Source: a virus
Lineage: Duplodnaviria > Caudoviricetes
Virus record (IMG/VR): IMGVR_UViG_3300033066_001190
Location: 32,001 to 96,000 of that record
Strand: one strand, 5' to 3'
Length of the DNA stretch: 64,000 bases
Shown: one piece after another, positions 3 through 46,700 of the stretch
Layout of the letters: each line of letters begins with the position of its first letter
Numbering within the stretch: position 1 is the stretch's first letter
Program-made: the position numbers and the translations under genes
Notes under the pieces: model-generated
Database searches by the model: none
What the model was told of the DNA's origin: nothing
Seen by the model: the letters and a program-made list of their open reading frames with translations, nothing else

Positions 3-1976
3 CAAGAAGCATTATATCCAGATTGGAATAAACAAACCAATGCTTCAGGAACAGGATACAATACAATGTTTCAAACATGGGTTTATCCTTTTCAGAACTA
101 TGATGACATGAGGGTGATTTCTGATGCAGTGGGTTCTGCTGTTGGTTTTAATCCTTTAGATAGAACCTCTTTGTCCTCTGTACCATTAATGAATGAGTTT
201 GACAACAGTTCATTAGGTAATTCATATGCATTCCTTCAAAACGACTTAGTGCAAGTTACAGAGGCTTATTGGGTTAGCCAAATGAAAGTGGGTTTATTAT
301 GTTTAATAAATCCAGAAACAGGAGAACCAGTTTCTAGTATTGTTGATGAAAGTTTTGAACCAAAAAGGTTTGGTATAAAGGAATTAGAAGATTCTACATA
401 CAGAGAGCAGGTAGAAAATCAAGAGCCTGGAACAATTATATGGTTTTGGAAAAAACAAATTTGGCAAGGTTGTAAAATTAATGAAAATCATTTAAACTCT
501 TCTGTAAATACTCAGCATGGAAGAAAAGGGTTATATATAGATATTCGTCCAGCAAACTTTCAATTCAAAGGGGATTATAACCCATTTGATGCAAAACTAC
601 CTGTTGTAGGAGGAGTTTTTAATAATAGAAATGGTAGATCAATGTCTATTGTTGACTTATTAAAACCTTATCAGGTTTATTACAATGCTATTTTAAACCA
701 AGCTTATGGAATAACTCAAAGAAACAATGGTAAGTTTTTCTTGATGGATATTAATATCCTACCGTCTCTAAAAGATTGGGGAGGTGAAGAAGCTTATGAG
801 AAATTCATGGGTGTTGCAAATGCAATGGGTATTGGATTAGTAGATCCATCTCCTTCAAATCCTAACAATAAGCAAGGTAGTGGAGGATTTAATCAATATA
901 CAGTAATTGATTTAGATGAAACAGAAAAGGTAGTTAGGTTAATTAATCTAGCTATGTTGATTGAACAACAAGGCTTTGCTCAATTAGGTATTACTCCTCA
1001 AAGACAAGGGCAAACTCAAGCATCTGAAACAGCTCAAGGTAATATGATTGCTGTTAATAACTCCTATGCTATTACAGAAACCTATTTTGAAAACTTTTAT
1101 AATTATAAGAAAAGGAAAGAAAGACATCATTTAGATATTGCTCAATATTGTGCATCTAAACAAAAAGATATCACTCTTCCTTATATTACTTCTGACTTAG
1201 GAAATGGCTTCATAGCCATAACTGGAACAGAATTAATGACAAGAGATTTAGCTGTTTATCCAATAAATGCTCAAGAAACAGCTAGACAAAAAGCAATTGT
1301 TGAAGAACTTGTTCTTAAAAACAACACAACAAATATACCTTTATCTAAACTAGTAGGATTGTTAAGACACAATTCTATTATTGATATGCAAAAAGAGCTT
1401 GAACAAGCTGAAGCTGATTTCTGGAAACAGGAGCAAGAAAAAATGAAACATCAGCAAGAAATGCAAGATTCTCAATTGCAAGCTGTTGCTCAAGAAAAGG
1501 ATAAAGAAAGAGCTTTTGAAGCAGAGCAAAATCAATTAGATAGGGAAAATGAATTGAGAAAAGTAACACTCCAAGGAATTAGTGCGGAAGGTTCTTATAA
1601 TCCAGAAGTAGATAAAACTGGTCAATTAATTGAACAAACCAAATTAGGATTAGATCAATCTAGATTGGCTGCTGAAAATTCTTTCAAACAATCTCAATTA
1701 TTGAATCAACAAATTGATAGCTCCAGAAAACATCAGCTTGAAAAAGATAAAATAAAGAATGAAGAAAAGCTAATAAAACTTAAAGAGAAAGAAGTCAACT
1801 ATAAGAAGCAAATTGAGGACACAAAATTAAAAGCCATTGAAAAACAAAATCAAAGTCAGGAAAAACTAGCAGAACTTAAACACAAGAATGACAAAGAATT
1901 GTCTAAAGTTAAGCTAGATGTAGCAAAGGTTAACTTACAAGCAGCTAAAAAGAAAGCTAAAAATCCTAACAAATGA
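3..1976 (+). CDS. Portal protein (5' truncated by window)
   Basis: Frame is open from position 3, upstream of the ATG at 66. Contains a GITPQRQGQ...ETA motif and a long coiled-coil C-terminus typical of crAss-like portals. Lies upstream of scaffold/MCP. Confidence 0.8.
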   Translation, partial: QEALYPDWNKQTNASGTGYNTMFQTWVYPFQNYDDMRVISDAVGSAVGFNPLDRTSLSSVPLMNEFDNSSLGNSYAFLQNDLVQVTEAYWVSQMKVGLLCLINPETGEPVSSIVDESFEPKRFGIKELEDSTYREQVENQEPGTIIWFWKKQIWQGCKINENHLNSSVNTQHGRKGLYIDIRPANFQFKGDYNPFDAKLPVVGGVFNNRNGRSMSIVDLLKPYQVYYNAILNQAYGITQRNNGKFFLMDINILPSLKDWGGEEAYEKFMGVANAMGIGLVDPSPSNPNNKQGSGGFNQYTVIDLDETEKVVRLINLAMLIEQQGFAQLGITPQRQGQTQASETAQGNMIAVNNSYAITETYFENFYNYKKRKERHHLDIAQYCASKQKDITLPYITSDLGNGFIAITGTELMTRDLAVYPINAQETARQKAIVEELVLKNNTTNIPLSKLVGLLRHNSIIDMQKELEQAEADFWKQEQEKMKHQQEMQDSQLQAVAQEKDKERAFEAEQNQLDRENELRKVTLQGISAEGSYNPEVDKTGQLIEQTKLGLDQSRLAAENSFKQSQLLNQQIDSSRKHQLEKDKIKNEEKLIKLKEKEVNYKKQIEDTKLKAIEKQNQSQEKLAELKHKNDKELSKVKLDVAKVNLQAAKKKAKNPNK

Positions 1977-2326: not shown

Positions 2327-2349
2327 TAAAGCATATAACTGTCCTATTT

Positions 2350-2380
2350 TTTGAACACTCGTTATTTTTTGTTATAGTTG
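2350..2380 (+). promoter_or_regulatory. Putative Bacteroidota-type promoter (TTTG-N19-TATAGTTG)
   Basis: TTTG at 2350-2353 and TATAGTTG at 2373-2380; the same architecture recurs at 36219-36249 and 58079-58110. Confidence 0.5.
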
Positions 2381-2404
2381 CATTACAAGCAACAACAATA
2401 CATA

Positions 2405-3547
2405 ATGCAGTCAAATTTACTAAACATTCAACTTCTCACAGAAGCAGAAGTAGGAGAAACATCTAATGTAGAATTAGCTCCTAATTTAGAAACCTCAGAA
2501 GTAAAAAAGGATGATAAAGTTGCAGATCCTGCAACACCAACTACTCCAAAAATTGAACTATTAACGCCAGAAGAAGCAGGTGTTAAATTAGAAAAGGATG
2601 AGGAAGGTAATGAAATTGCAGTTAAAGAAGAACCCAAAGTAACAAAAGAAGATTTGGCTTTAGATTATAAAGCTTTAGCTGAATCCCGAATTAAGAATGG
2701 TGCTTGGGATGAATATGAAAATTGGAATGAATTAAAAGATTCAGTGGAATGGACTGCTGAATTGTTTGAAAAGTTAGAAACAGAACAGTTTCAAAACAAA
2801 GTACAAAAGGGCATTGAAGAAGAAAAATCTCAATTCGGCTCTCAATATGCTCAACTCTTAGAGCATGCAAAAAATGGAGGTAATTTTCAAGAATTACTAC
2901 CTTCTATCCAACAAGAATTAGATATTGAATCCTTAGATGAAACAGATTTAGATTCTGCTGAAGAATTAATCAGAGCAGAATGTGAAGCAAAGGGATGGAG
3001 TGAAAAAAGAACAAAGTCTTATATCACTTCGTTAAAAGATCAAGGAGATGATGAGAATTTCATCGAAACTGCTAAAGAAGCTAAAGCAAGCTTAAAAAGT
3101 ATTGTTTTAGAAGAAAGACAGGAACTCATCAAACAAAAAGAAGAAGAAGCTAGAGTCACTAAAGCATATTGGGAAACTTTCAATAAAAAAGTAAGAGAAA
3201 CTATTTTTAAAGATGAAGAGCTTTCCCCAAAAGAACAAAAAGATATTGACAAGTTTGTATTTGAATACAAGCATGTAGATCCAGCTTCTGGTAAAAAATA
3301 TTCTGATTTCAATTTGAAATTTGATGAAATCAAGAATGACCCAGCTAAATATGCAAAGCTCATCAAGTTGGTAAAAAACTTTGATGAAGTAGTGAAAAAA
3401 GACACTGCTAAAAAAGAAGCAGTTAAAGAAATCTCTTTCCTTTTGAGAGGAGCATCTCAATCCACAGGTAAAAAGACATCAGAATATCCTGAATTACAAC
3501 CAGATAAAAAAGTAAAAGGGTATAATCCTTTTAAAATCAAACCTTAA
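2405..3547 (+). CDS. Acidic scaffolding-like protein upstream of MCP
   Basis: Very acidic, helical/coiled coil, lies between portal and MCP. ATG 2405 is preferred over TTG 2378 because of its A/C-rich leader and because the promoter overlaps 2378. Confidence 0.6.
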   Translation: MQSNLLNIQLLTEAEVGETSNVELAPNLETSEVKKDDKVADPATPTTPKIELLTPEEAGVKLEKDEEGNEIAVKEEPKVTKEDLALDYKALAESRIKNGAWDEYENWNELKDSVEWTAELFEKLETEQFQNKVQKGIEEEKSQFGSQYAQLLEHAKNGGNFQELLPSIQQELDIESLDETDLDSAEELIRAECEAKGWSEKRTKSYITSLKDQGDDENFIETAKEAKASLKSIVLEERQELIKQKEEEARVTKAYWETFNKKVRETIFKDEELSPKEQKDIDKFVFEYKHVDPASGKKYSDFNLKFDEIKNDPAKYAKLIKLVKNFDEVVKKDTAKKEAVKEISFLLRGASQSTGKKTSEYPELQPDKKVKGYNPFKIKP

Positions 3548-3567: not shown

Positions 3568-5229
3568 ATGGCAACTCCTACTTTACAGAATTTTGGAAAT
3601 AACCTCGTAGTTAAGAAAACTGATTACCGCATGGCGGGTACATTTACCGATGAAAACAAGTTGGTAAATCTATTTGGTTATGACAACGTTAAAGGTGATA
3701 ACTACATGGGGATTTTCTCCGTATTCAACCAATGGTCTACAGTAAATGTTCCTCTCTTAAAAAGGAGCATCATGGAAAAAAACATTATCTACACAAATGG
3801 TAATGTTGGTTCTTTAACTTTCGATATGCCCTATCGTTTAGAAGGTCTAACTGTTAAAGTAGATTTGACTGACGACATCCAATACCCAGGTATTGATGGT
3901 AGCATCTTTGAAGTGGTTATTGGAGATGGTGGATTAGATTCTGTATTACAAGTAGGTGATCGTATCACTGCTGATTACTACGATGGTCAAAACTTAATCA
4001 TTCGTGAAGTAGTTGGTATTTTTGGACAAGGGTTTAAATACAAGGTTCAGTTGGTTACAAATGACAAAACTGAATACTTTAATAAATCTCAACTAGCTCC
4101 AGGAACTCAATTCTTCAAACTTGGTCACACAGCAGGTGAATTTTCTCAAGATGGTTCAGGTATTTCTCAAGGTTTTGGTATGATGAGGTTACAACATCGT
4201 TTAGGTGGTCGCAGAATGTTGGAATATACATTAACTGGCGATGCTCAACGTTTGGAACTAAGTGGTTCTACTAAAATTGGTGGTTTTGACTTTGATCTTT
4301 CCAACTTGAACAAGTATGGTGATTTGAGTGATGCAATGAATGGTGGTTACTTGGTATTGGGAGAAAATGACGGAAAAGGAAATATTAAAAAAGGTACATT
4401 ACAATGGGTTAGTTTCATTGAAGTGATGTTGCATAATGAACTTGCTCGTTTGGAAGAACTTGATTTGATGTTCTCTCAAGGTGGTACTGTAACAGGCGCA
4501 AGGAATAAAACAGAAGTTGTTTCCGAAGGTTTGTATCAACAAATGAAACGTGGTAACTGGAGACATTTCTCTAAATACACTCGTAATGCAGTGGTAGATA
4601 CTTTCCAACAAGCATTTAGAAATCGTCCTGATATTCCAGATTACAAACGTTACTTCAAACTTGAAGGTGGTCGTGGTGCTGTAAATGAATTCCAAAAAAT
4701 CTTTAACCAAGAATTAAACACCACTGCAAACCAATTTGGAGGTATTATTAATGCTGATCAATTGGGTGTAATCAAAGGTGATGCAATGAATCTTGAGGTA
4801 GGATACCGTATGAATAAAGTGTTTATTTCAGGTGTGGGTTGGGTAGAAATTGAACATAACCCAGCATTTGATGCAACACAATCTCGTGTAATGGATCAAC
4901 CAATGATTGGAGGTTTACCTAAACGTTCTTACACTTCTTGTATTTTTGATTTGACTGACTCTAACAGCACTAATGCTGCTCAAGTAACAGGAGATGTAGA
5001 ATTTGCAAAAGGTATGGATACAGGTGCAAACATCTACTTAGTGAAAAATAAGAAAATGCCAGGTGTAAAAATCACTCACATTAATGGTCGTACTTCTCCA
5101 TATCCTGTAATGGCAGGTGGAGGTCAAGTAGCTTCTACAAGGTTTGATGCGTATACTCAATTGTTAGAAAATCAATCTAACATTTTCTTGAAAGATCCTA
5201 CTCGCTCAATCTTGCTTGAGTTGAAATAA
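3568..5229 (+). CDS. Major capsid protein (crAss-like HK97 fold)
   Basis: 553 aa; biased high-expression codons (CGT, GGT); EGLYQQM and EHNPAFD motifs; position after the scaffold. Confidence 0.8.
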   Translation: MATPTLQNFGNNLVVKKTDYRMAGTFTDENKLVNLFGYDNVKGDNYMGIFSVFNQWSTVNVPLLKRSIMEKNIIYTNGNVGSLTFDMPYRLEGLTVKVDLTDDIQYPGIDGSIFEVVIGDGGLDSVLQVGDRITADYYDGQNLIIREVVGIFGQGFKYKVQLVTNDKTEYFNKSQLAPGTQFFKLGHTAGEFSQDGSGISQGFGMMRLQHRLGGRRMLEYTLTGDAQRLELSGSTKIGGFDFDLSNLNKYGDLSDAMNGGYLVLGENDGKGNIKKGTLQWVSFIEVMLHNELARLEELDLMFSQGGTVTGARNKTEVVSEGLYQQMKRGNWRHFSKYTRNAVVDTFQQAFRNRPDIPDYKRYFKLEGGRGAVNEFQKIFNQELNTTANQFGGIINADQLGVIKGDAMNLEVGYRMNKVFISGVGWVEIEHNPAFDATQSRVMDQPMIGGLPKRSYTSCIFDLTDSNSTNAAQVTGDVEFAKGMDTGANIYLVKNKKMPGVKITHINGRTSPYPVMAGGGQVASTRFDAYTQLLENQSNIFLKDPTRSILLELK

Positions 5230-5268
5230 GTAAGAAAACAAAAGTAAAACAAAGCAACAAACAACAAT

Positions 5269-6243
5269 ATGGTATTAGATTTAACAAAAACGTACAAAGT
5301 AGAACCTAAGATTTCTCTAGGTGATGCTCAAGGATTAGATAAATTTGATTTATCTCGACACGTAGGAACTCTTAAACAAATCAGTGTACATTACGACACC
5401 TTAACAGGTAAGTTTAAAACTGGTTTAGATGAAAATGCTCCTGAAGTATTAGCACTACCTAAAGAAGAAAGGGAACAAAAGATTGATTGGATTAAAGCTA
5501 CTCGATCTTCACTTGAACAAAAAATTGGTAGACCTGGTATTTTAGATCCTACTAACGAAGATTTTTGGTCTGTGTGGTCAGTAAATTTAGAAATTGGTCA
5601 AGATAAACATGTTAAAGTTTTTGGACAGCACCCCTACTTTATTCCAGAAACACATTGGTCACATGCTTTAGCTCTTATTACTCTACAAGCAAATGATGCT
5701 TTACCAATGAGTAAGAAAGAAGCAAATAACCCAAAATATAAAGATGCTCAATTCTATATTACTACTCCAGAAGAGGAAGTAACAATGAGCAAAGAAAAGG
5801 TTAGGGAAAATCGTGCAAGGAACACAGAAATGTCTAAATTGTTTGATGATACTAATCCTCTATATGAAAGGGCTTTGCGAATTGCATACTTACTAAATGT
5901 TCAAAAAGAACCTGTAGGCTTAGAGAAGCTGGAAGAAGTTTTAGAAATGTTCTCTTCTCAGAAAGAATATATTAAACGATTCTTAGAGCTTTGTAAAATG
6001 GAAGATCAAGAATTAGAACTTCGTACCACTCTTAAAAAAGCTATCGAACTTGATGTTATCAGTTTTAATGCTGCTGATAAAGTTTATTACCGAGGAGGTT
6101 TTAACATGAGGGGAACTGAAGAAGCTGTAGTAAACATGTTTAAAGTTAATTTAGCTGATCCAGTGATTGCAAGGGAATATGTCGAAATTAAAGATGCTGT
6201 AAATAAACGGGAATCTAAGAAAAAGAAGAAAACCATTGCGTAA
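5269..6243 (+). CDS. Conserved crAss-like protein downstream of MCP (gene-75-like)
   Basis: KTGLDE, LDPTNEDFW and LKKAIELDVI motifs; synteny. Confidence 0.55.
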   Translation: MVLDLTKTYKVEPKISLGDAQGLDKFDLSRHVGTLKQISVHYDTLTGKFKTGLDENAPEVLALPKEEREQKIDWIKATRSSLEQKIGRPGILDPTNEDFWSVWSVNLEIGQDKHVKVFGQHPYFIPETHWSHALALITLQANDALPMSKKEANNPKYKDAQFYITTPEEEVTMSKEKVRENRARNTEMSKLFDDTNPLYERALRIAYLLNVQKEPVGLEKLEEVLEMFSSQKEYIKRFLELCKMEDQELELRTTLKKAIELDVISFNAADKVYYRGGFNMRGTEEAVVNMFKVNLADPVIAREYVEIKDAVNKRESKKKKKTIA

Positions 6244-8920: not shown

Positions 8921-8958
8921 AAAGTGGGAGGGATTCAAAACTCCCTTCCACTTTTTTT
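8921..8958 (+). terminator. Rho-independent terminator
   Basis: AAAGTGGGAGGGA-loop-TCCCTTCCACTTT followed by a T-run. Confidence 0.85.
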
Positions 8959-8984: not shown

Positions 8985-9419
8985 ATGGCATTTATCAAAC
9001 AACCTTCAAACCTAAGTAACGCTATTCTTAACTTTGTTAAGCATCTTGTATCTAAAGCTGTATATGAAGATATTAAGGCTCTTTTAAATCCTTGTTGTAT
9101 TCCAACATTGGAAATTGCTTCTGACTACACTTGTGTAAGCCCTAGTTATACTAGATTTAATGATGTAACTGTTACAGGAGATTATAAGAACAAAACAGCC
9201 ATATTGCTTTTTACAATTACTGAATCTGATGGCACTGTACAAACTTCAACAGTTGTCGCTACATTTGATGAAAATGGTTTATGGAATGGTTCTTTTACTA
9301 TGTTAGATTATTTTAATGATGGAATTGCTGACATTACAGTTAGTGTATTGGTAAATGGATCACGAGTTGTAGAAACTTCTAAAAATGTTCATTTAACAGG
9401 TATACCAAGTTGTGACTAA
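8985..9419 (+). CDS. Hypothetical virion protein (beta-rich, Ig-like?)
   Basis: 144-aa ORF within the structural operon. Confidence 0.5.
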   Translation: MAFIKQPSNLSNAILNFVKHLVSKAVYEDIKALLNPCCIPTLEIASDYTCVSPSYTRFNDVTVTGDYKNKTAILLFTITESDGTVQTSTVVATFDENGLWNGSFTMLDYFNDGIADITVSVLVNGSRVVETSKNVHLTGIPSCD

Positions 9420-9529
9420 TGGGCTGTAATTCTAAAAAATGTAAACAATGTGGTAAATCTAAACCAGCTTGCCAATTGGTAAATGGTTTATGTTCTACAT
9501 GTATAAGTTTAAATAGCAAGAAACATTAA
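9419..9529 (+). CDS. 36-aa Cys-rich peptide (absent from ORF track)
   Basis: MGCNSKKCKQCGKSKPACQLVNGLCSTCISLNSKKH; TAATG coupling at both ends fills the gap exactly. Confidence 0.75.
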   Translation: MGCNSKKCKQCGKSKPACQLVNGLCSTCISLNSKKH

Positions 9530-12637: not shown

Positions 12638-13552
12638 ATGGCTCTATTAGAAACAGCTTCTATTATAACTTTAGATGGTACAGGTACAGAAATACCTACA
12701 ATAGTTCTTACGGATCCTTGTAGCTTTTATGTACTTCAAGGTTCTGTTACAACAACAGGTAATTATGCAATTGTTCCAACAGGTACTCCAATTGTAGGAT
12801 ATAAGGTTGAATTTTATATAGATGGGGTTATTGACATCACTACAAATAGTAAAACATTTAGTATTTTTGGTAAGACTTTAACACAATTACAGCTTTCAAG
12901 TCCTCAGAAAATAGAATGTAGGTATTTAGGTTCAAGTTGGTTTGTGCATATTATTCCTTCATTTGGATCAAGTGCAATTATTTCTCAAGCTAATTTAGGA
13001 GCAAATTCAGTTCCTGCATCAGCTATACCTAATGACAGTATTACAGATGCTAAGTTAGCTACAATGACAGCAGCTTCATTAAAATATGGAAATGCATCAG
13101 GAGATCCAGGAAATTTAGCAATTGGTAATAACCAAATTCCAATAGGAAATGGTACAACTATCACCACAACTACAGTTAGTTCTTTGTATGGATCAATGAT
13201 TTCTGGTAAATACTTCGTCATCTATGGTGATATTTCATGGACATCTGGAGAACAAAATAAGAGTTATTACTATTTGCCAGCAGGAAATAGTTATTCTTTA
13301 CAACAAATATTGTTTAGAAGCTATTCTGACATGTCTTCAGGAGGTTCTGCGGAATTAGAAGTGTTTAATAGTGGAACTTCTATATATGCAAATACAGCAG
13401 TTTTTGGTTCTGCTGCTGCTGCTGGAGCTTCAAATGCTTTTACATTTAGTCCTGTTGAACCTTTTTCAGCAGGAGATACTTTGGAATTACTCCCTTCAAA
13501 ATCAACCCCAGGAGGAAAAGCTAAATTTACAGCTTTATTCCTCATAGTATAA
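12638..13552 (+). CDS. Putative fibre protein
   Basis: S/T/G-rich; SITDAKLA motif typical of fibre shafts. Confidence 0.5.
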   Translation: MALLETASIITLDGTGTEIPTIVLTDPCSFYVLQGSVTTTGNYAIVPTGTPIVGYKVEFYIDGVIDITTNSKTFSIFGKTLTQLQLSSPQKIECRYLGSSWFVHIIPSFGSSAIISQANLGANSVPASAIPNDSITDAKLATMTAASLKYGNASGDPGNLAIGNNQIPIGNGTTITTTTVSSLYGSMISGKYFVIYGDISWTSGEQNKSYYYLPAGNSYSLQQILFRSYSDMSSGGSAELEVFNSGTSIYANTAVFGSAAAAGASNAFTFSPVEPFSAGDTLELLPSKSTPGGKAKFTALFLIV

Positions 13553-13598
13553 AATAAACGTTGCTGTTCTTTTTGTTGCTTTAAAGAAGCATGTTTTT

Positions 13599-13624
13599 AG
13601 GGAGGGGAAACCCTCTCTTTTTTT
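13599..13624 (+). terminator. Rho-independent terminator (GAAA loop)
   Basis: AGGGAGGG-GAAA-CCCTCTCT followed by T7. Confidence 0.85.
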
Positions 13625-13646
13625 GACAATTTTCAACCTTATATAA

Positions 13647-15119
13647 ATGACAAATTACGAAATCGAACAAAGGATTAGACAAATAGAGAGATCTCTACAA
13701 TGTAAACAATCCTGTAGTTCTTCTGGAAGATTTGCAGCTAGGTCTATAGATTATAGCACATTACTTAAACAATATCAAGAAGCTAAACTTAGTCCTGGGT
13801 GGTATTTAATAGAAGACTATCAAACCATTTGCAAAGTACAATTTACAGATAGTAGTCATGATGGATCAGGAGGTGATGAAATATTAAATACTGAAATAGG
13901 TAATTGGACACCTCTTGTAGAACCTCTTTATATCAGAGCTATTACGGAAGACACATTTGATCCCAATGTAGTAAGTGCATTATACCCAAGTCATAGTATT
14001 TTATATGATATTGATAATAGCATTGCCGAATATTATGAATATGACGGAATTAATCATAAAGGAGTTATTTATCACAGGTTGAGTCCAAAAGGGCAACACA
14101 GACAATATGATTTTATGTCTGTTGTCTTTCGTAGATGGGTAGATTCACTAGGAAGGTATGTAGAAGTAAAACCTACAGTGGATGTAAATGACTATCAGGA
14201 TTATTTGTGTAATTTTGTAGGAGCAGAAATAACTGTAGAACAATGTTTCAGCTCTTCTGCCCAATCTGAATTCAATACACAATATGGATTAGACAATACG
14301 GTGATTCAAGCCAAGGGTCTTGTTGTTTTTAATTTGGAAATTGCAGCCAATGCCACTACAGGAACTTATTCATTTTCTGGTTATTTTTCAGACCAACTTA
14401 GATTACTTGTTCAATATAATCCTACAGATTTTACATGTTATGTACCTGGAGTTGCTACAGTTTCTTCAATTGATGTAGTTAATAAAACCATAACTTTTGC
14501 TACAGCCCCCACTACAAGTGATTACAACAGTTATTGTGTAATAAGGGGTACTGATGCAGCCAATGGTTCTACAATTCAATATGCTTACGGTAATACGTTT
14601 GGAGGAAGTTTTAATGAAATACACAGTGAGTTTATACATAATACAATAGTGTATGGAGAAACTGGAGCTGTACATGCTGTAAGAGTTGGGGGAATAAGGG
14701 TGCAAAGTTTGGCTAGATTAATTGGAGCAGGAAGAGTAAGTAATTCTTTTTTTGGTAACCCTTTATGTACAGCAGGTACAGTGGCTAATCTATCGGCTTT
14801 TGTTTTTCTTGATAATTTCTTTTTGGGAGATGGTGATTTTACAGATAATATATTTCAAAAAGCAGCAAACTTAACAGTAGATGACAATAATTCAATAACT
14901 CATTCCACATGGCATACTTTAGAAACTATATTGTTTAATGGTAATGTTGCAAGTCACGAATTTAATAACAGTGTTGCCAATAAAACAATAGCCAATGTAG
15001 CAGATTTAAGCGATCCAACAAAAGAAACAAGTTCATTCATTGATTTGAATGATGGAAAACATTATTTGGTGGAATTTGTCGGAGGTGTATTATCTCAAGG
15101 AACTGTAATAACTAATTAA
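13647..15119 (+). CDS. Putative tail spike/receptor-binding protein (beta-helix-like C-terminus)
   Basis: LSPGWYLIEDYQT and YDF...FRRW motifs; N/F/G-rich C-terminus (GNTFG, NSFFG, NFFLG). Confidence 0.5.
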   Translation: MTNYEIEQRIRQIERSLQCKQSCSSSGRFAARSIDYSTLLKQYQEAKLSPGWYLIEDYQTICKVQFTDSSHDGSGGDEILNTEIGNWTPLVEPLYIRAITEDTFDPNVVSALYPSHSILYDIDNSIAEYYEYDGINHKGVIYHRLSPKGQHRQYDFMSVVFRRWVDSLGRYVEVKPTVDVNDYQDYLCNFVGAEITVEQCFSSSAQSEFNTQYGLDNTVIQAKGLVVFNLEIAANATTGTYSFSGYFSDQLRLLVQYNPTDFTCYVPGVATVSSIDVVNKTITFATAPTTSDYNSYCVIRGTDAANGSTIQYAYGNTFGGSFNEIHSEFIHNTIVYGETGAVHAVRVGGIRVQSLARLIGAGRVSNSFFGNPLCTAGTVANLSAFVFLDNFFLGDGDFTDNIFQKAANLTVDDNNSITHSTWHTLETILFNGNVASHEFNNSVANKTIANVADLSDPTKETSSFIDLNDGKHYLVEFVGGVLSQGTVITN

Positions 15120-15130
15120 ACCTATACGTT

Positions 15131-15397
15131 ATGGCAGAAAGAATATTCAATTGGTTTGATTTAATTTTAAACTATTTTACAGAACATTTATCCCAAGATC
15201 AGGTGGAAAAAAGCATATCTTTCATCACAGGCGATTTAGCAGTTATGGCATTTTTATGGATACACTTAGATATAAGTGATTTTTTAGTCAAAATATGTGC
15301 TACTATTATATTAGGTATAGTGGGTGGAGCTGCGGGTTTATGTGGTAAGGATTTGTATAATTGGGTAAAAACAAAAGCTAAAAAGAAATGGCATTGA
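15131..15397 (+). CDS. Holin-like membrane protein
   Basis: Two hydrophobic segments and a basic C-terminus; upstream of the endolysin. Confidence 0.55.
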   Translation: MAERIFNWFDLILNYFTEHLSQDQVEKSISFITGDLAVMAFLWIHLDISDFLVKICATIILGIVGGAAGLCGKDLYNWVKTKAKKKWH

Positions 15398-15687
15398 ATA
15401 TAGACAGGTTTAACTTCATACAGATGTTTAATAATAGCAAGGGTAAAACATCCTTGATGTTATTTTCATCATTTATTGGAGTTATCACTTCTTCTTTGAT
15501 ATTTACTTTATGCGGAGTTATAGCAGCATTTATGGTGATGTTTGAAGCCAAATCTACAGACATTTCTAATGTTCTAACATCATTAGCTATGCAGTCGGTA
15601 GGCTTATTTACAGTGTCAATAGGAGCATTAACAACTAGAAGATTTACAGACGATAAAACAATTACAAACGAAAATAAAGAAATATGA
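15388..15687 (+). CDS. Second holin/antiholin-like membrane protein
   Basis: Two TM-like segments; overlaps the endolysin start. Confidence 0.5.
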   Translation: MALNIDRFNFIQMFNNSKGKTSLMLFSSFIGVITSSLIFTLCGVIAAFMVMFEAKSTDISNVLTSLAMQSVGLFTVSIGALTTRRFTDDKTITNENKEI

Positions 15688-16208
15688 TTTGGTTATATGC
15701 AGGGCATAATAATGGGGACTGCGGAGCAATTGCAAATGGTGTAAAAGAAGCAGATTTAACAAAGGAGCTTAGAAACCTTGTCAAGCAAAAGCTTGATGCA
15801 AAAGGTGTAAAAGTCACAATTGATGACGATGCTGATAATTTAATTACAACAATCAAAAAAACAAAATCAACAGAAAATGACGTTATTATTGATATACATT
15901 TTAACAGTAGTGCTAGTGTCAGTGCCACAGGAGTAGAAACCTTAATTCCTGATAGGTTCACTGTAAAAGAACAAAATTTAGCTAAAATTATTTCTGCTGG
16001 AATTGCTAAGACATTAGGAATTAAAGATAGAGGTGTAAAAACTGAAATTGATTCCCATAGAGGTAGATTAGGTATTTTACATCCAGCAGGAACAAATGTC
16101 CTTATTGAGGTGTGCTTTATTTCTAATCTTAAAGATTTACAAAGCTACCAAATCAAGAAAAATTTAGTAGCAGATGTTATTGTTAACAGTTTAATTGGAT
16201 TAAAATGA
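15684..16208 (+). CDS. Endolysin, N-acetylmuramoyl-L-alanine amidase (Amidase_3)
   Basis: AGH..D.GA...G.KE, IHFNS and LIEVCFISN catalytic motifs. Confidence 0.92.
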   Translation: MIWLYAGHNNGDCGAIANGVKEADLTKELRNLVKQKLDAKGVKVTIDDDADNLITTIKKTKSTENDVIIDIHFNSSASVSATGVETLIPDRFTVKEQNLAKIISAGIAKTLGIKDRGVKTEIDSHRGRLGILHPAGTNVLIEVCFISNLKDLQSYQIKKNLVADVIVNSLIGLK

Positions 16209-16921
16209 AAAAAGTAATAGAATTCTTTAGTGATAAATTAAATAGAGTGGCAACAATAGGTGTTGTTGTTATTATTGTTTTAATTCTTTTGTTAGCAAAA
16301 TGTGGTTCTAAAAAATCAAACCTCGATTCAGCATTGACATCTTTGGATTCTTTGAAGATGGAATTTACAGTGAAACATGCTAAAGACAGCTCTATCATAG
16401 CTGAACAGGCTTTGCTGATAGTAGATAAGGACAATGCAATGATTAAACAAATAGAAAAGTTTGAAAAATTATCTAAAGTTAAAGCTAAGATTAGCACTAT
16501 CACTGTTACCAAGATTGATTCCGTACTTATCCCTATTGAAAAGCCTATTGTTATAACCATCGTAGATTCCTTAAACGATTCTACTAAATACCTAAAAACT
16601 CCTGCTGATTTTGAGGTTTCTAAGCCTGATTATTCAATCAAAGGAACTATCACTGATTCTTCTGTATTAGTTAAATCTATCCTAATTCCAGATACATCAA
16701 CAATCATCATTGGAGATAAATCTACAGGATTATTCAAAAGACAATCTATTGTAAGAATCAAACATTCAAACCCCTTTATTCAACAATCTTCAATGAACAA
16801 TGTAGTTGTAAAGGATGATAAAATTAATAAACCTGTTGTAGGATTTATTATAGGTGGAGCTACAGGAATTGTAGCTGCAACAATTGTTAATGTATTAGTA
16901 AACTCTTTAAAACCTCGATAA
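16205..16921 (+). CDS. Spanin-like protein
   Basis: N-terminal hydrophobic helix ending LAKC, C-terminal TM helix; directly after the endolysin. Confidence 0.55.
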   Translation: MKKVIEFFSDKLNRVATIGVVVIIVLILLLAKCGSKKSNLDSALTSLDSLKMEFTVKHAKDSSIIAEQALLIVDKDNAMIKQIEKFEKLSKVKAKISTITVTKIDSVLIPIEKPIVITIVDSLNDSTKYLKTPADFEVSKPDYSIKGTITDSSVLVKSILIPDTSTIIIGDKSTGLFKRQSIVRIKHSNPFIQQSSMNNVVVKDDKINKPVVGFIIGGATGIVAATIVNVLVNSLKPR

Positions 16922-17043
16922 TGGCAGCTAAACCCACTAGTAATAACTTTTCACCTAAACCTAAGAAAGGTAAATCTAAAGCTAAAAAGAAATTAAATAA
17001 ATCAGAAAAGAAGAATAAAAAGCCATACAAAGGTCAAGGTTAA
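16921..17043 (+). CDS. 40-aa Lys-rich peptide ending KKPYKGQG (absent from ORF track)
   Basis: MAAKPTSNNFSPKPKKGKSKAKKKLNKSEKKNKKPYKGQG; TAATG coupling; followed by a terminator. Confidence 0.7.
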   Translation: MAAKPTSNNFSPKPKKGKSKAKKKLNKSEKKNKKPYKGQG

Positions 17044-17067
17044 AAAATATTGTTGTTGATTGTTGTT

Positions 17068-17110
17068 AAGCCCTCCTTGTTACAAGTCTGTAATTTTGGA
17101 GGGTTTTTCT
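17068..17110 (+). terminator. Rho-independent terminator closing the lysis operon
   Basis: AAGCCCTCC...TTACA-AGTC-TGTAA...GGAGGGTTT followed by TTCT. Confidence 0.75.
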
Positions 17111-17330
17111 TTATTGACTAAAGAACAGTTTTCCTCTGCAAATCATTAGGTTTGAAGGTCTCTAGTCTTCTTTTGAGAGATGTTTTGTAGCAGTGATTTT
17201 ATGAAGTCCTTGTTGGAAAACTGTAAAAAGCAGAATGATCTGTTAAGAGCAAGGGTATAAAATGCCTCACTACTATCGGTGACTATTTCAACACCTTTTT
17301 GTAATTAGCTTTCACTAACTCTGCTTCCAG

Positions 17331-17455
17331 TTGGAACATAAATAAAAAACCCCCACTTTTTCAAGTGAGGGCTGTTCCAAAAGCCTCACTAAATGCTGAG
17401 ACCCAAGTAGAGAGGTTAGGAACAATATCTTACAACATTAGTTCTCAGTTAATGG
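17331..17455 (-). ncRNA. Candidate structured leader/small RNA with alternative terminator/antiterminator
   Basis: Minus strand: CUGAGA/UCUCAG stem; AGUGAGGC/GCCCUCACU competes with the CCCUCACU/AGUGGGGG-U6 terminator. Confidence 0.5.
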
Positions 17456-17461
17456 TTGTTA

Positions 17462-17469
17462 CAAAATTA
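17462..17469 (-). promoter_or_regulatory. Bacteroidota -7 promoter element TAATTTTG
   Basis: Reverse complement of CAAAATTA matches TAnnTTTG and sits immediately upstream of the structured RNA. Confidence 0.5.
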
Positions 17470-17561
17470 ATACTTTTATCGAAATTACAAAATAAATTGT
17501 CATTAAATTCATTTATTTTGTTTATCAATTTCTGATACTCAAAAATAAAAACTATATTCAA

Positions 17562-17987
17562 ATGACCAAAACAAAAACTGTTAAAAAAAGTAAAAAGAAG
17601 GTAGATAAAGTTGCTTTGATGTCGTTCTTAAAACTAAAAGCAAGAGAGCTGACCTATTCTAGAACCAAGTGGGAAGTAATAATATATGGATTATTAAAAG
17701 AACAAGGTATATTATTTGAATTTCAAGAGCCTATAATCACTAAAAATGGACATGGGTATATTGCTGATTTCTTAATCAAAGGTACAAACCTTATAATAGA
17801 AATAGATGGTAAGCAATGGCATGGAACTAAAGAGCAACAAAAAAAGGATAACTTGAGATCAAGAAGATTAAGAAAAGACGGTTATGAAATTTTAAGACTT
17901 TGGAATTCTCAAGTGAGTGTTTGTTCGAAACAAGATTTGATTAAAATAATAAAACAGGCTATAGATAATGCTACTAAGGTATTGTAA
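17562..17987 (+). CDS. DUF559/Vsr-like PD-(D/E)XK endonuclease
   Basis: T..E, YIADF, IIEIDG..WH, D..R...L...GYEILR.WN. Confidence 0.85.
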
Positions 17988-37708: not shown

Positions 37709-40700
37709 ATGGCAGAAACATTAAAAGATCTTTACGGAAAGCTTGAGAAAGCTAATATAAAACTTCCCGATTATGACACTTTTGAAAAAAAGTATAATAC
37801 TCCCGAAGGAGCTGATGTTTTATATAAAAAACTAAATTCGGCTAATATAAAATTACCAGATGTTGAATCTTTTAAAAGTAAGTATTTTACAACATCTACA
37901 AGTGATAATCTTGTTAAACAGGATTCGGACAACATTATAACAAAAAATCTTAAAAATATAGTTTCAAATGTTACAGGTTATCAATTTGATCAACCTGAAC
38001 AAAAAGGTATTGATTTTGTATTTGGAAAAGACAAACAAAACAGGTCAATAAATACACCTTCGGCAACTATTACAATAGATGAAGAATCAGAACCTAATTA
38101 CAAATTAGCTGCTTTACAAACAACAGGTAAAGTAAATCTTACTCCTGAAGATATGGATAATCCATATGTAGTTGAAAGGGTAAGAGCTAACAAAAGAAAC
38201 ATAGATGATCAAATTCAAAAAGTAAAAGATGCTTACATTGAAACTAAAGATACAGATGTTTTATTTTCAGGTATAGAAGATTTAAAGAAAATCTATCAAA
38301 CCAAAGAAGGCTCTTTTGTTAAAAACCAATTAGATAAAGATTCTAAAAAAATAGAAGAAGAGATAAAACTTTTAGAAAACTATAAAACTGAAAATTCAGG
38401 TAAAGGTTCAGAGTTATTTCCAGATGAAGCTGAAAAAATTGTTGGAAAAAAGGGTATATTGACAAAAGCAGATGTGGGTAATAGACTTAAAGAACTTTAT
38501 GCAATAAGAAACACTCCTAAAAAAGAATTGGATGATTTACTTCAAGTGGATGAATCTCTAAATCAGGTAGCTAAAAGTCTAATTAAATATAAGGATGATT
38601 TAGCAGAAGCTGCAAGAGAAACTCCAGAAATATTAGTAAATCAAAAAGAAGACAATCTTCTTTACAATTTAGCTGAATATGGTACAAAGGTTTCCAATAC
38701 AAATTCTAAAGAATTGTACGATGCTAATTTATTAAAGTTTAAAAAGAGAATAGCTTCTGACGAACAAGGTAATTTTATAGATTTAAGACAACTTTTATCT
38801 AACACTACAAACAATGATTATTATACATCTAATTTAGTTGGAGATAGAGCTAAGTTCCAAGAAGATACATATAACGGAATTAAAGCTTTAAGGGATAACA
38901 TAGCTTTAGCTAAAGATGAAAAATATGGTATTCCTGCACAAATAAAAAGATTACAACAAGAAAAACAACAACTGATTGATACATATGCAAAAGCTAATGT
39001 TCCTGTTCCAGAACAGGAGCTAAGAGCTTTTGATGATATTATTAAATACAATGAGAATAAACTTACTAATCAAAATGCACTGTCTAAAAAATTAGACGAA
39101 ATAGAAAAACAATATCTTTCTGAATACAAAGATGTTAAACAGTACAAGGAAGATAATACTAAACTTTCTGAATTATACCTAAAAGATTCATCAAAAGTTG
39201 GAGTTTTAGATCAAGTAAGCTTAGAAGCTAAACCTTTTTACAAAACCCTTTATGGAATAACAGGAGGTGTAGCTCAAGCTATTGAACAAAACATAACATT
39301 ACCTTTAGAAGAAAAAACTGGAATTATTTCCAAAGAACAAAGAATAGCACAATCTTTAGATAATTATTATGCTATTAACAATGTCAACTTTTTGTATGTT
39401 CCTGATGCTATAAAAAACAGACAAAGTATTAAAATTACTAAAGATGATAAAGCTCCATTAGGTTTTAAAATAAATGATGTAAATGTAAGAGCTGCTTTAT
39501 CAGAAGGGGTAAATACATTTATTCAGTCTTATGCTTTTGGTAAAGCAGGTCAATTATTTGGTAAAGCAAGTGGTTTATCTGGAGCAATTGGTGAAGAATT
39601 AGGTACTGTATGGGGAGGAGCTTTTACATCTAATGTGATGATGTCTGAAATAGATGACCAAAACATTGAAAAATTCTTAAGAGGAGAAATTAAGTTTGAT
39701 GATATTGTTCCTAAATCAACGTTGGAAAAAACTTTAGAGGGAGCAACAGAAGCTATATGGATTCCAGAATTAAAAGTTTTAGATCACGCAGGACAAGAAA
39801 TTGTTAAAAAGTATGCTTTAGGTAAATTCTTACAGGAATCTGTAGGCAGAAAAATGTTATCTGATGATTTCAAGTATTTAGCTAAAACTGTTGTTAAAAA
39901 TGCTATTGAAGTTCCTTTACATGAAAGTATTGAAGAAATTGCAGGTAATGCAGGTCAAGATGTAATTGATATAGCTTACAAGAAATCAAACCTTAAATAT
40001 AATCCAGAAGAAAACTTTACTCTTCTAAACAATATTCAAACAGCTTTAGTTACTACAATTTCTATGTGGGTTACCTCTGCTGTTGGTATAACATCCAGTG
40101 CATTAAATAGAGCATCTATTGGAGACACCTATAATTATGAAATAGCAAAGAATGCTGATGAATTCTACAATTATGCTGTAGCAGGTATTAATGAGCTAGA
40201 TAACAAAGAATTTTCTAAAATCTATCCTCAATTTGCTTCTAAACAGGAAGCTATTTCCACAACTAAAAAAGTTTACGATCAATATAAACAACTGTTTAAT
40301 GAAGCTGCTCCAACTACATCAATGCTAGTTTCAGATGTAGATAAGCAAAACTATTTTAACATCCTGATGGATTTGAAGAAAATGTCTTTAGAACCAGCTA
40401 CAGAAGAAAATACAAAAAAAGCAGCTATACTTTTATCTAAAAAGCTTGCATATGATGTAAAAGCTAGTGAACTAAGAAATAAGCCTATTAAAGAAAGATT
40501 ATCAGCTACACTAGATGAATCAATTGATCAATTAGCTACAGACGATATAAATGTTCCTACATTGCAAGCTACCATTCTTCAAATGGAAAAATGGAAAACA
40601 TTGCTTGGAGATGATAAGCAATATACTAAAGATGTTCAAAGGCTAGACAATAAAATAGCAGAAGTAAAACAACGTATAATTGATTTAACTCCTGTTTCAG

Positions 40701-43700
40701 ATAAACCTCAAGAACAAGTAACTCCTGAACCTGTTGAAGAAATTAAATCTGATAACTCTTTTGAAAAAATCAAATCGGAAATTGATAATTTACCAAAAGA
40801 AGAAATAAAAACATTGCAATCTCTTTCTGAGATTGAAGCTAGATATCCTAATTTGAGTGAATCGGATCAAGAAAAGCTTTATGATTATGTAGATACAAAA
40901 CTTAACTCTTTAGAAAAAGAAGCAGATAAAGTGTCTACTTTTAAAGACAAAACAGGTAAAGAATTTTCTCTAACAAAGAAAGATCAAATTCTTGTTAATG
41001 GGGAAGTGTTTAACCCTATTTCCTATGAAAATAATAGACTGAAAGGGAAGTATTTAAATAATTCACAAGAAATATCCCTTAATCCAGAAGATTTTGAAAT
41101 TTCTACAGATAAAGAAGCTATAAATAAAGTTCTTTCTAAAACAAAAAAGGAAGAAACAAAAGAAACAGAGGATTTTATTTCTGCTGAAACTCTTCTTGAT
41201 AAAGAACCTAAAGCTACATCTTCTGATATTGAAGCACAAAAAGCTGATATAGAAAGAAGAAAACAAGAGGAGTTAATCATTCCTAATACAAATACTTCTT
41301 TGTATGACAGTGTTAAAAAATTAGAAAAAGGTATTGAAGATATTACAAACAAAATAGCTGAATTAGAAAAAGAAGGTAAAGGTAATATTGCTAATCAAAG
41401 AACAGGAGTTACATCTCTTTCTGGATTAGCAACTGATAGGAAAAGATTAGAAGACATTCGTGAAAAAGAGCTAGAGAAAATAAACAAAATCAATGCTAAA
41501 TATGATGCAGAATTAGCTGCTTTAGAAGGTAAAAAAGAAGAAACAAAACCTGTAGAAGAAGTTGAACCTGTTTCTAATGAAGAGTTAGAAAAGGAATTAC
41601 TACAAATAAATGAGCAAATTAAAGATGCTTTAAATGATGAAACTTCTACTATAACAGTAGAAGAGTTAGCTAAACTAGCTAATAGACAAAAAGAAATAAA
41701 AGCTGCTTTAGGTATTACAGAATCTAAACCTGAAACTAAAGAAGAAAAGGTTGAAAAAGTACAAGAAAAAGAAACTAAAATAACCGATAGTAAATTAAGT
41801 AAGGTTTACTATCCTTTTTCTACCACTCCTCAATATGTTACAAAATCTGGTATAACTGATGATCCTTTTATTCAAATTCAATCTAACGCTTTAAACAAGC
41901 TTAAAAAGGAGAACGAACTAAAGTCTTATGAAGACATGGGTGTATTTGTTACAGTTATGAACAATACATTCCCATTGGACGAAAAACATCAGCCTAAAAA
42001 TACTCTAGATGCTGTAAATTCAGGTAAAATAACAAAAGAAAGGGTAGAAGAAGGAAGGATTGCTGTTCTTACAAATAAAAATGGAGAACCTTTATATTTT
42101 GACAACGATGGAAATAGAACAACTAGTGATAAAGGAACAGTTGTTTATCAACCATTACGAGGAACTATCAAAGATGGTAAACTTGATATGTCCAAACAAA
42201 ACATTCCAACACAAGAGGAATTAAAAGCTTCTGGAGATTTAGAAAGGTTCAATATAGAAATTCAAAGACTTACAGAAGTACGTCTTTCAAAAGAACCTGT
42301 TACATTAAAAATAGCAGAAATTACTAAAGGTGTTGACAATTTTAATAAATCTGAAAGAACAAAAATTGATTCTAATAAGTATGATATTCTTATAAAATCA
42401 AATGGTTATGTTGTAGCAAAAGATAAAACCAACAACATAGAAGCTCCTATTTATAGGTCAACATTGGAAGCAGCAGGATTATCTGATTTCATTGCTGCCT
42501 TTATGAACATGAATAATAAAGAAGGTTTGGCTGCCAATCTTAAAAATGATTGGCAAGCAAGACGGGATTTCCTAGAAAAAGTTATCTACACATCTCCTGC
42601 TAGAAGAATACGCTTTAATGAACCAAATCTATTTTTAACATCTTCTGAAGAAGTATCTAAACTTCCTGTAAACGTATCCCAAATCTACTTAAATGAAAAA
42701 TTTGATTGGTATAAATGGGACGGTAATAAATTTATCCCAGATAATTTTAATACTTACCAAGATTTCTTGGCAGATAAACTAACTGTAGCTTCTGTATCTC
42801 CTAGTTATAATTCCTATATTAAATTAGGTGAACAAATATCTAAAGAAACAAAACCTATTCAGGAATCACCAAAACCTGAACAAGCTCCTTTAATTCAATC
42901 TCCTGTAGCTAAAGAATTTAAGAAATCAAATAGATCACAAGGAATAAAAATAAATACTGATGCGAAAGGATTATCAGGAGTTAGCAAAAAAACAGACCTT
43001 AAAAGAACTAAACTTCTTGGTAAACGGATTACAGAAGAACAAAATAAAATAGCTAAAGAGTGGTTTGATCAATATTTGAAACAATCAGGAGCTAATTTTG
43101 AAGACTTAAGAGATGTTGTAAATTCTGATGCATGGGCTACATGGTCTACTGCTGCTATTAAATTATGGCAAGGTGGGGATTTTACAGATTTATATCACGA
43201 AGCTTTCCATGATTTCAGTCAATTGTTTTTAACAAAAGAACAAAAGAAATCTCTTTATGACGAAGTAAGAAAAACAAAACCTAGAATATCTGATTTTGAA
43301 GCAGAAGAAATTATAGCTGAGGATTTCAGAAAATACATGTTATCTGGTCAAAAGTTAATTCTTAATAATAGAGTAAAAAGAAATACCATCTTTAGGAAGA
43401 TGTATAACTTTTTAAGAGAGTTATTTACAGGAACACCTTCGTTAGAAGTAGTTTATCAAAAATTAGCTAATCAAAATATTTCTTCTTATAAAAGAAATGT
43501 TGATAATGCTTTATTTGGTAAACTTAATAAAAACATAGAAGGTTTAACCTTCACTGAATCTGTAAATCTATATAGAGCTTTAGATAGCTTAATAGCTAAA
43601 CAATTTAGAGAATTTGGAATACCTATTTCTAGATTATTCAAAGAAAAAGAAGTAATTGAAAAAACATATCAGCAAGTTGCTTTAGATTTAAAAGCTGCTT

Positions 43701-46700
43701 TAGATCAAAATGAACAAGATTACAATGTTTTAGTTGATAGATATGCCGAAGCTGATGAGTTGACAAAATTATCTCTCTTACCAGATTTAACAGCTCTTGA
43801 AAAACTTGTTAACAATCTATCTTTTGTTCTGGAGAATTTTAATGATGTAAGGGCTAAACACCTTGTAGAATCTGAGTTTTTGAAAATCTCTAAAAGCTTT
43901 GTTCCCGAAGAAATAATAGACGAATTAAATCCAGAAACTAAAGATGCTATATATGATGATAAAGAACAGGAATCTGCAAAAGATAGAGCTTCTAATCAAA
44001 TCATTTATCTATTAGCTTCTTTACCGAAATACATTAACAAAAACGGAGAAAAGGTATTAGCTTACAATCCTTTTATTGATGTAATTGAAGACATTACAGA
44101 GTTTGATTTAGCTTGGAATAGGTTAGCTAAAAAACTTACAGGAGTTAGAGATTATAAAGTGATGATTGAAAAAATTCAGGAATTGACAAAAACTAACCCC
44201 GAATATGAAGAATTATTAAAGTCTTTACCAAATCCAAATATGGATGGTAAAGAGTTAACTCTTTTAGAAATTCAGTTAAGAAATCAATTCATTAATACTT
44301 TTTCTCAGCCTTATGTACCATTAAAGTTTGCTTCATGGTGGAAAGATGAAAAAGGTCAATTGAGAATAAATACCAAAGAAGCCACTGGTAAATCATTTGA
44401 TTTATTAAAATTGGATTGGGATGAAAATATTCAATCTATTCCAAACGAATATAGAATATTGGATGAAACTACAGGTCAATATTCTATTGATATTGATAAA
44501 ATAACTAAAGATTTTGAAAACATCAACAAACTTCGTCCAAAAAGGAAAGAAGAGTTTTTAAAAGCTTTGGGATTTTCATTTTCACCACAAACATTAGAAT
44601 CTCCCGAATACCTAGATTTGATTACAGATAATCTTGTATTGGGTAAAATATACAACGCTATAAAAGATTTATCTAATCTCAAAAATGGTATTTTACCAAA
44701 TGGGTATGAATTAACTGATTTTGAAAAAGAGTTTGTAAATAAACCTGTTACATCAATTATTGATGCTATAAAAGTATCTAAACATGGAAAAGATAAAAAT
44801 AGTATTCAGAGATTAGGTGATTCTCCAATTTTAATTCAGGGTCAAAAAGACAACATAGAACAAATTCAAGCTATTGAAATAAATTATTCTGATAGGTATT
44901 TCTCTGATAATTTGTTGAATTCTGAAAACTCAAACGTTTGGGCAATAAGACCTTGGAGTCAACAATCTGTTTTATATAGTTATTTGAATGATCCTAAGTT
45001 TGAAACTTATGAAGATTTAATAAATGATCCAACAGGAGCTTATTTTGATATATCTAAAAACCCAGATGCTGATAATATTTATCTAAATTCTGTATTTGAT
45101 GTTGTAACAGGTAAACGTAGATTAGATAGGAAAGGTAATCCTGTAAAAATTAATCTCTATAACCATAATGGTTTAGAAATCAATTTTGGAAATGAAACAA
45201 AAGGTGGTAAAACAACCTCTCTTTCTAGGTTTGAAAAATTAGTACAAGATATAGCTCCATTGTTATTATCTGGAAACAAGGAGCATATTCGATATGGTGA
45301 TAAAACTACTTCTAATGGTACTGAAATTAGGTTTAAAAGGCTTGTAGAACCTAAAGCTGAAAACCCATACCTACCTGTAGATATATCTTCTTTTAAAAAT
45401 ACTTACCTCCCACAAGAAGCAAAAGCGATATTTAGGAGAATACTTCATTCTGCCCTCTATCAAACCAATCAATATTTTACTGAGGGTATAGGTAAAGATT
45501 TTTCTAACTTTAATCAAAATCTTGAAAAGGAAGAATATTGGGGATATTTTGATGGTATTCTCTCAGAAGAAACCAAAAAAGCTTTAATTAGTCAAGGTTT
45601 AATTGAAAAACCTCTTGATATATTTAAATTGATTGACGATAACTCAAAATTAATTTATAGGGATTTAGAGGTATTTCTTGAAAATGACGTAAAGAAAATA
45701 AAAAAAGAAGTAGAATCTAACTATGCTGTTTCTACCGAAGATTTTATTCCTAATGAACTTTTGAAGAAAACAATCTATGGTGAAACAGAACAACAAAGTT
45801 TAGAAACAATTTATAGGGCTTTTGCTATAAATTCTTACATCATGAATCTTGAACACACTAGATTATTGTTTCAAGATCCTAGATTTTATGATAATAAAAA
45901 AGGTAGTTATAGAGAACCTTTTAAACGTTATGCTAAAGCCTCTTCTACAGGAACTATAGCTGTAAATGATGACCAGCAAAATGAATTTTTACAAGGTAGT
46001 AGATTAGAAAAACAATTATACGATAGTAAAAATCCAGACAACAAATCTCCAGAATGGACAGAAACAGGTATTGAAAACAGTGTTATTTTTAATGATGTTG
46101 TTATTTCTGCTGATGATTTTGTAAACCAAATTGAAGATATATTCAAAGATAAACCTTTAGAAGAACAATTAGCTGTAAGAAAAGCTTATTCTGATATTAC
46201 TTCTACAGATGCTTTTGGTTTTTGTACATTTGATTGGTACAGACAGTGGGAAATTAGAAGTGGAAATGATAATTGGAACAATGAAAAGGAAGAATTATAT
46301 AAGAAAATTGTTACAAAACAACCTATTTCTGAAGACGAATTACTAAAATCTTTTGCTTTTTTCCCACCAAAAAAACTAAGGGTTGTTGGATTTACTTTTA
46401 ATAGGAAGACTAATAGGTTTGTACCTATAGATTATAAATTTGCAGTTTCTCCACTTTTACCTAATTTGGTAGAAGGTAAGACATATGAAGTTGTAAAAGA
46501 TAACATGTTAAGACAGAATATATCTTTGGGATTGTTTAAATCAGCCTCTAAGCATTCTGCAATTACATCTGATGGTAAATTTAATGATTTGTATAATAAA
46601 GATGGAAGCGTTAATACAGGTGATTATACAATTAACCCTATTTACTCTGAATTCATTTTTGAAGTGGTTGCATCTCCAAAAGATTATAAAGGAAGTGTAA

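Follow-up and report, generated by a model that had tools for sequence, protein, structure and literature searches.

The closest described counterparts of the element analysed here are RNAs of bacteria and phages. OppZ and CarZ of Vibrio cholerae are autoregulatory 3'UTR-derived sRNAs that repress a cistron of their own operon, which gives negative feedback at the sub-operon level (PMC7398697); those sRNAs depend on Hfq and RNase E and have linear seeds, while in our case the seed is a hairpin loop, the element belongs to a lytic phage, and no RNA species has been observed. The host type concerned here lacks Hfq. Bacteroidia do not use Shine-Dalgarno pairing, and their initiation depends on leader structure and upstream adenines (PMC6847099). 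In this setting GibS and FopS of Bacteroides thetaiotaomicron repress by covering translation initiation regions, and one FopS copy is 3'UTR-derived (PMC11697453); they are, however, host-encoded, have 5' single-stranded seeds and have their own Rfam entry, whereas the targets here are phage head-assembly genes. The c4 antisense RNA of phages P1 and P7 (Rfam C4) is a phage-encoded structured RNA whose exposed short segments pair with ribosome-binding regions of genes on the same transcript, with phage-specific compensatory changes in RNA and targets; c4 lies upstream of its targets in an immunity operon of temperate phages and is cut out by RNase P, while our element is a 3'UTR at a terminator in a late structural operon, with no sequence or model similarity to c4. 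Lastly, the UTR-derived non-coding RNAs of lytic phage phiKZ are evidence that virulent phages produce stable UTR-derived RNA species (PMC8545117), although those RNAs have no known targets and no reported leader complementarity, and come from a different phage and host lineage.

The stretch analysed, hereafter the window, comprises 64,000 nucleotides of a 106.6-kb IMG/VR virus record (IMGVR_UViG_3300033066_001190, positions 32,001 to 96,000). It contains a + strand late block consisting of a portal gene, a scaffold-like gene and the major capsid gene, followed by head, tail, lysis and giant virion-protein genes. The leaders lack Shine-Dalgarno sites and are A-rich, and the scaffold-like gene is preceded by a promoter of the TTTG...TAnnTTTG type that keeps its position in relatives, so that the tag described below would lie close to the 5' end of the mRNA; all this fits a Bacteroidota host. 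The nearest cultured relatives by capsid protein are Leptolyngbya phage Lbo-JY46 (32%) and Cellulophaga phages phi4:1 and phi17:2 (26%). The last gene of the tail or tail-fibre operon ends in the 72-nt 3'UTR of interest, and the features discussed are collected in the table.

Positions of the features in the window and, in the last three rows, in related phage loci (L numbers)
Feature	Position	Strand	Description
Portal gene	66-1976	+	Late block
Promoter	2340-2404		Bacteroidota-type, upstream of the scaffold-like gene
Target 2	2387-2395	+	AAGCAACAA, leader of the scaffold-like gene, -18..-10 from the ATG
Scaffold-like gene	2405-3547	+	Late block
Major capsid gene	3568-5229	+	Late block
Target 1	5251-5261	+	AAAGCAACAAA, leader of the gene after the capsid gene, -18..-8 from the ATG
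Post-capsid gene	5269-6243	+	324-aa protein
Upstream terminator	8921-8954		
Cys-rich ORF	9417-9527		Small, zinc-ribbon-like, overlaps the stop codon of the previous gene
Last tail or tail-fibre gene	12638-13552	+	304 aa, stop codon at 13550-13552
Antisense ORF	13321-13545	-	74 aa, starts 27 nt after the motif
SL1 hairpin	13556-13596	+	14 pairs with two small bulges, 10-nt loop
Anti-leader (site 1)	13572-13582	+	TTTGTTGCTTT; 13573-13582 form the loop, 13572 is the closing U
Intrinsic terminator (SL2)	13599-13625	+	Stem-loop 13599-13618, 8 pairs (5 G-C), GAAA loop; T7 at 13619-13625
Sister tract (site 2)	17049-17067	+	ATTGTTGTTGATTGTTGTT, before the terminator that ends the lysis cassette
Giant ORF	37709-50407		Single 4232-aa ORF, followed by ORFs of 950 and 1516 aa
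22-nt tract, L081/L082	12782-12803		Exact complement of the post-capsid leader
22-nt tract, L080	12695-12718		Complement of the post-capsid leader with one G.U
26-nt match, L079	about 13978-14003		Exact copy of the capsid-gene leader

The first-pass annotation had described a U/G-rich 3'UTR tract, capped by a GAAA terminator, that is the exact reverse complement of the leader of the gene after the major capsid gene and in part of the scaffold leader, and this observation is correct in all its coordinates and sequences. AAAGCAACAAA occurs exactly twice in the window, once on the + strand at target 1 and once on the - strand at the UTR (0.22 matches expected; 4 of 100 shuffles give two or more), and AAGCAACAA of the scaffold leader complements nine bases of the same tract, TTGTTGCTT. 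Within the window alone, however, the match is only borderline (p about 0.04 to 0.1 against dinucleotide shuffles): the UTR has seven exact 11-mer complements elsewhere in the window, an RNAduplex comparison of the whole UTR against 49 leaders is no better than shuffles (p 0.07-0.11), and the longest run against the three a-priori leaders gives p = 0.04. The whole-UTR comparison was misleading, in that it ignores that only the loop is exposed. With the hairpin loop alone, the post-capsid leader ranks first of 132 leaders in the genome (11 nt, against a mean of 5.5 and sd of 1.3; duplex -12.8 kcal/mol) and the scaffold leader third (-10.8 kcal/mol), and the site is also the longest reverse-complement match of the post-capsid leader anywhere in the first 22 kb of the + strand.

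The UTR folds into two hairpins, SL1 and the terminator SL2, in both the MFE and the centroid structure (z = -2.5 for the whole UTR), and the loop of SL1, UUGUUGCUUU, is together with its closing U the anti-leader tract. The tract is predicted to be unpaired within the UTR (mean pairing probability 0.14; 0.05-0.42 for the loop). The flanks of the loop pair better than shuffled flanks (p = 0.025 in this phage). The element thus lies in the 3'UTR of a coding operon and ends at the intrinsic terminator of that operon, which itself has the expected G+C-rich stem-loop followed directly by a U tract. A cmscan of positions 13400-17700 against Rfam, at E up to 1, gave only two chance snoRNA hits elsewhere, with no match to C4 or to the Bacteroides sRNA families, and literature searches found no description of this element.

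Scans with alignments of the capsid protein and of homologues of gene g6255 gave about 30 related phage loci, and four whole genomes (G numbers below denote genomes) and one 39-kb partial contig were also read. Twelve phages (11 distinct sequences, capsid-protein identity 26-55%) have the same layout after their last fibre gene, namely the stop codon, SL1 with an 8-14 nt loop of core UUGGUUU, and then a terminator; homologues of the last gene of the window's operon lie directly upstream of the element in L003-L007, and in cultured Cellulophaga phage phi4:1 the gene at this position, gp046, is annotated as a tail fiber protein. A covariance model built from these phages found further copies in L090/L091 and L092, and a scripted search found more in L076, L083, L085, L086, L087, L096 and L098; additional model hits in G004 and G005 lie inside coding regions without terminators and were treated as chance. 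Searches for closer relatives with the fibre protein alone, or with its alignment, gave nothing, and a metagenome scan gave only short contigs plus one TARA contig whose element lies beyond the part that was read; capsid relatives of 67-88% identity were seen but their contigs were not included in the comparison. The stems of SL1 share no sequence, and MAFFT could not align the UTRs, yet the stems pair: flank-shuffle p values are 0.001-0.23 per phage (Fisher 1.6e-11 over 11 phages), and on the model-based alignment 72.7% of cells pair against 42.3% in shuffles. The covariance model anchors on the loop and leaves some stems out of register, so this alignment understates pairing. All eight pairs change on both sides, and the covariation score is 0.766 against 0.24 (0 of 500 shuffles reach it) and at most 0.41 when partners are slid.

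In relatives, the leaders of the scaffold-like gene, of the gene after the capsid gene and of the small Cys-rich ORF, a third predicted target, carry an AAACCAA-type tag just before the ATG. We ranked every leader of six genomes (47-221 genes each) against the loop: the post-capsid gene is first or tied first in five genomes and tied second to fourth in the sixth, the scaffold gene is in the top four in all six, and the pairing always falls at -1..-20. These duplexes are short and A-U rich (-9 to -14 kcal/mol). In an unbiased scan, the longest reverse-complement match of the post-capsid leader anywhere on the + strand lies within 70 nt upstream of a predicted terminator in 15 of 28 loci, where about 6% is expected (binomial 1.7e-11). 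In the 169-kb genome G001 the word AAACCAAAAAA occurs six times, five times as sense copies in the structural block (four of them in gene leaders), while the single antisense copy is at this UTR. As an internal control, the terminator after the g6945 homologue carries no anti-leader in this clade.

Co-variation of the UTR and the leaders in relatives had been named in advance as a condition that the proposed pairing should satisfy, as had complementarity above composition-matched shuffles; the latter is only marginally fulfilled in this window, as described above, whereas loop and leaders do change together. This phage is the only one whose loop reads UUGC instead of UUGG, and both of its target leaders read GCAAC where all other AAACCAA-type relatives, including those with 86% and 91% capsid identity, read CCAA, a C:G to G:C flip (the leader of g9529 carries a weaker copy with one mismatch). 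The base 3' of CCAA is A, C or U in different lineages, and the loop has the matching U, G or A in 8 of 11 phages, with three mismatching at this position. In a more distant subclade the anti-leader is not in a hairpin at all but is a 22-nt single-stranded tract: L081/L082 carry an exact complement of a quite different post-capsid leader and L080 carries 22 nt with one G.U to yet another leader, the tract in both cases following the stop codon of the g6945 homologue directly and preceding the terminator that ends the head operon. An own-versus-cross permutation gives p = 0.0026, but it is limited by the low complexity of U-rich loops and A-rich leaders, so that cross-phage matches are also long (off-diagonal mean 8.7 against 10.4 on the diagonal) and some cross pairs beat the own pair. 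Shuffle tests per phage give p 0.003-0.3 (Fisher 1.7e-8); since the phages are related, the combined values overstate independence and are upper bounds on the real support. A sister tract before the lysis-cassette terminator complements the 3' half, CAACAACAAT, of the same two leaders, so that sites 1 and 2 together cover -18..-1, and equivalent second sites exist in G002 (12 nt) and G005.

On this basis we believe, with moderate confidence, that the element is an antisense 3'UTR RNA that damps translation of the post-capsid and scaffold-like genes. In this view the loop of SL1 pairs with the A/C-rich tag at about -5 to -20 upstream of the start codons in a Bacteroidota-type host whose ribosomes depend on unstructured A-rich leaders, and covering this region should lower translation initiation and perhaps expose the message to cleavage. 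The element may act as the tail of the full-length mRNA or as a processed small RNA, and its dose would follow transcription through the tail genes, making it a negative feedback or balancing device between head-assembly and tail gene expression. No promoter fits between the upstream terminator and the next gene, so transcripts ending at 13618 probably start upstream of the head genes, and pairing could therefore be intramolecular or in trans. The first-pass proposal, that a 3'UTR-derived sRNA or long-range pairing couples fibre-operon transcription to translation of head-assembly genes, is thus partly supported: what the analysis demonstrates is the structure, the loop-leader complementarity, the conservation of the same orthologous targets and the co-variation, which together support a selected RNA-RNA relation, whereas accumulation of a stable RNA, pairing in vivo, its mode in cis or trans, and repression as its outcome are our inference. 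No transcript, processing or protein data exist for any member, and target expression on mutation of the seed was not measured. We class the element as a variant among the 3'UTR-derived antisense regulators (sRNAs of the OppZ, CarZ and CpxQ type), and it is absent from Rfam and from the literature we could search. Post-transcriptional control in phages of Bacteroidota is almost unexplored, and a conserved phage RNA that covers the ribosome-loading region of head-assembly genes would be a simple, testable example of RNA-based dosage control in a virulent phage and would show how SD-less leaders can be regulated. The element is present in a cultured phage-host pair (Cellulophaga baltica and phi4:1), so the question is directly accessible, and it offers annotators a recognisable non-coding feature for a large group of environmental phages related to crAss-like phages.

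The main rival, which we consider unlikely, is that the pairing is real but serves RNA processing, the 3'UTR pairing in cis or trans with the leader between the capsid gene and the next gene so as to direct endonuclease cleavage (RNase III-type for the 22-bp versions) or protect an end, and so uncoupling the stability of the abundant capsid message from the genes downstream. No terminator or hairpin separates the capsid gene from the next gene (39-nt gap), and the 22-nt tracts of L081/L082 and L080, at the end of the same head operon, give duplexes of -27 to -28 kcal/mol; in this window and most relatives, however, the duplex is only 9-13 bp and presented from a loop, which is too short for RNase III, the target always sits on the ribosome-loading region, and the scaffold gene at the 5' end of the operon is targeted too. 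It is similarly doubtful that SL1 is a protein-binding or 3'-end-protecting hairpin, such as a site for a phage or host RNA-binding protein or for an antitermination factor acting on the adjacent terminator, with the complementarity a by-product of a U-rich loop. The hairpin does directly abut a terminator, the loop core UUGGUUU is nearly invariant in most relatives, as expected of a protein site, and composition alone gives chance runs of 5-8 nt, but this reading explains neither why the best-matching leaders are the same two orthologous genes in every genome, nor the G:C flip shared by loop and leaders in this phage, nor the unrelated 22-nt pairs of L080-L082.

A role on DNA, in which a phage DNA-binding factor recognises the same double-stranded site in either orientation at late-gene starts and operon ends, is less likely still. 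The same word does occur in both orientations and the scaffold gene has a promoter just upstream of its tag; yet the sense copies sit 0-10 nt before start codons, also where no promoter fits (the 39-nt gap), the orientation bias seen in G001 is strict, and the inverted copy is always flanked by a compensating, non-conserved stem, which points to a single-stranded RNA fold. Chance complementarity between a T-rich spacer and A-rich leaders, for which the weak window-only statistics speak, is already contradicted by the conservation of position, fold, targets and co-variation across more than 20 phages, and we regard it as very improbable. An antisense gene was also considered, but no relative has the minus-strand ORF found after the motif in this window; the idea was rejected and the ORF is probably spurious. 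A bolder reading, possible but tentative, is that this phage clade runs a private translation-control code, in which a short A/C-rich tag (AAACCAA type; AAGCAACAA here) replaces a Shine-Dalgarno site on a chosen set of late genes, and one or two 3'UTR anti-tag RNAs at operon ends act as master governors that read out how far late transcription has progressed and set the head-to-tail protein ratio, tag and anti-tag co-evolving as a phage-specific pair, as immunity specificities do.

The function of the main target is unknown: the post-capsid protein gives a confident AlphaFold model (pLDDT 90), but PHROGs, Pfam, PDB sequences, the Atlas, Foldseek and VIA-align gave no assignment and no informative fold match. 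Its phi4:1 homologue, gp063, is not among the MS-detected virion proteins, and in phi4:1 it and the scaffold-like protein are the only head-block genes from portal to gp061 not marked as virion proteins, which suggests, by inference, that both targets are assembly factors and not structural parts. The 26-nt match in L079 is used in sense as the leader of a minus-strand gene and is not an anti-leader, so leaders are reused on both strands. Finally, the single 4232-aa ORF of the window and the ORFs of 950 and 1516 aa that follow it are typical of giant virion or ejected proteins of crAss-like and phi4:1-like podophages.
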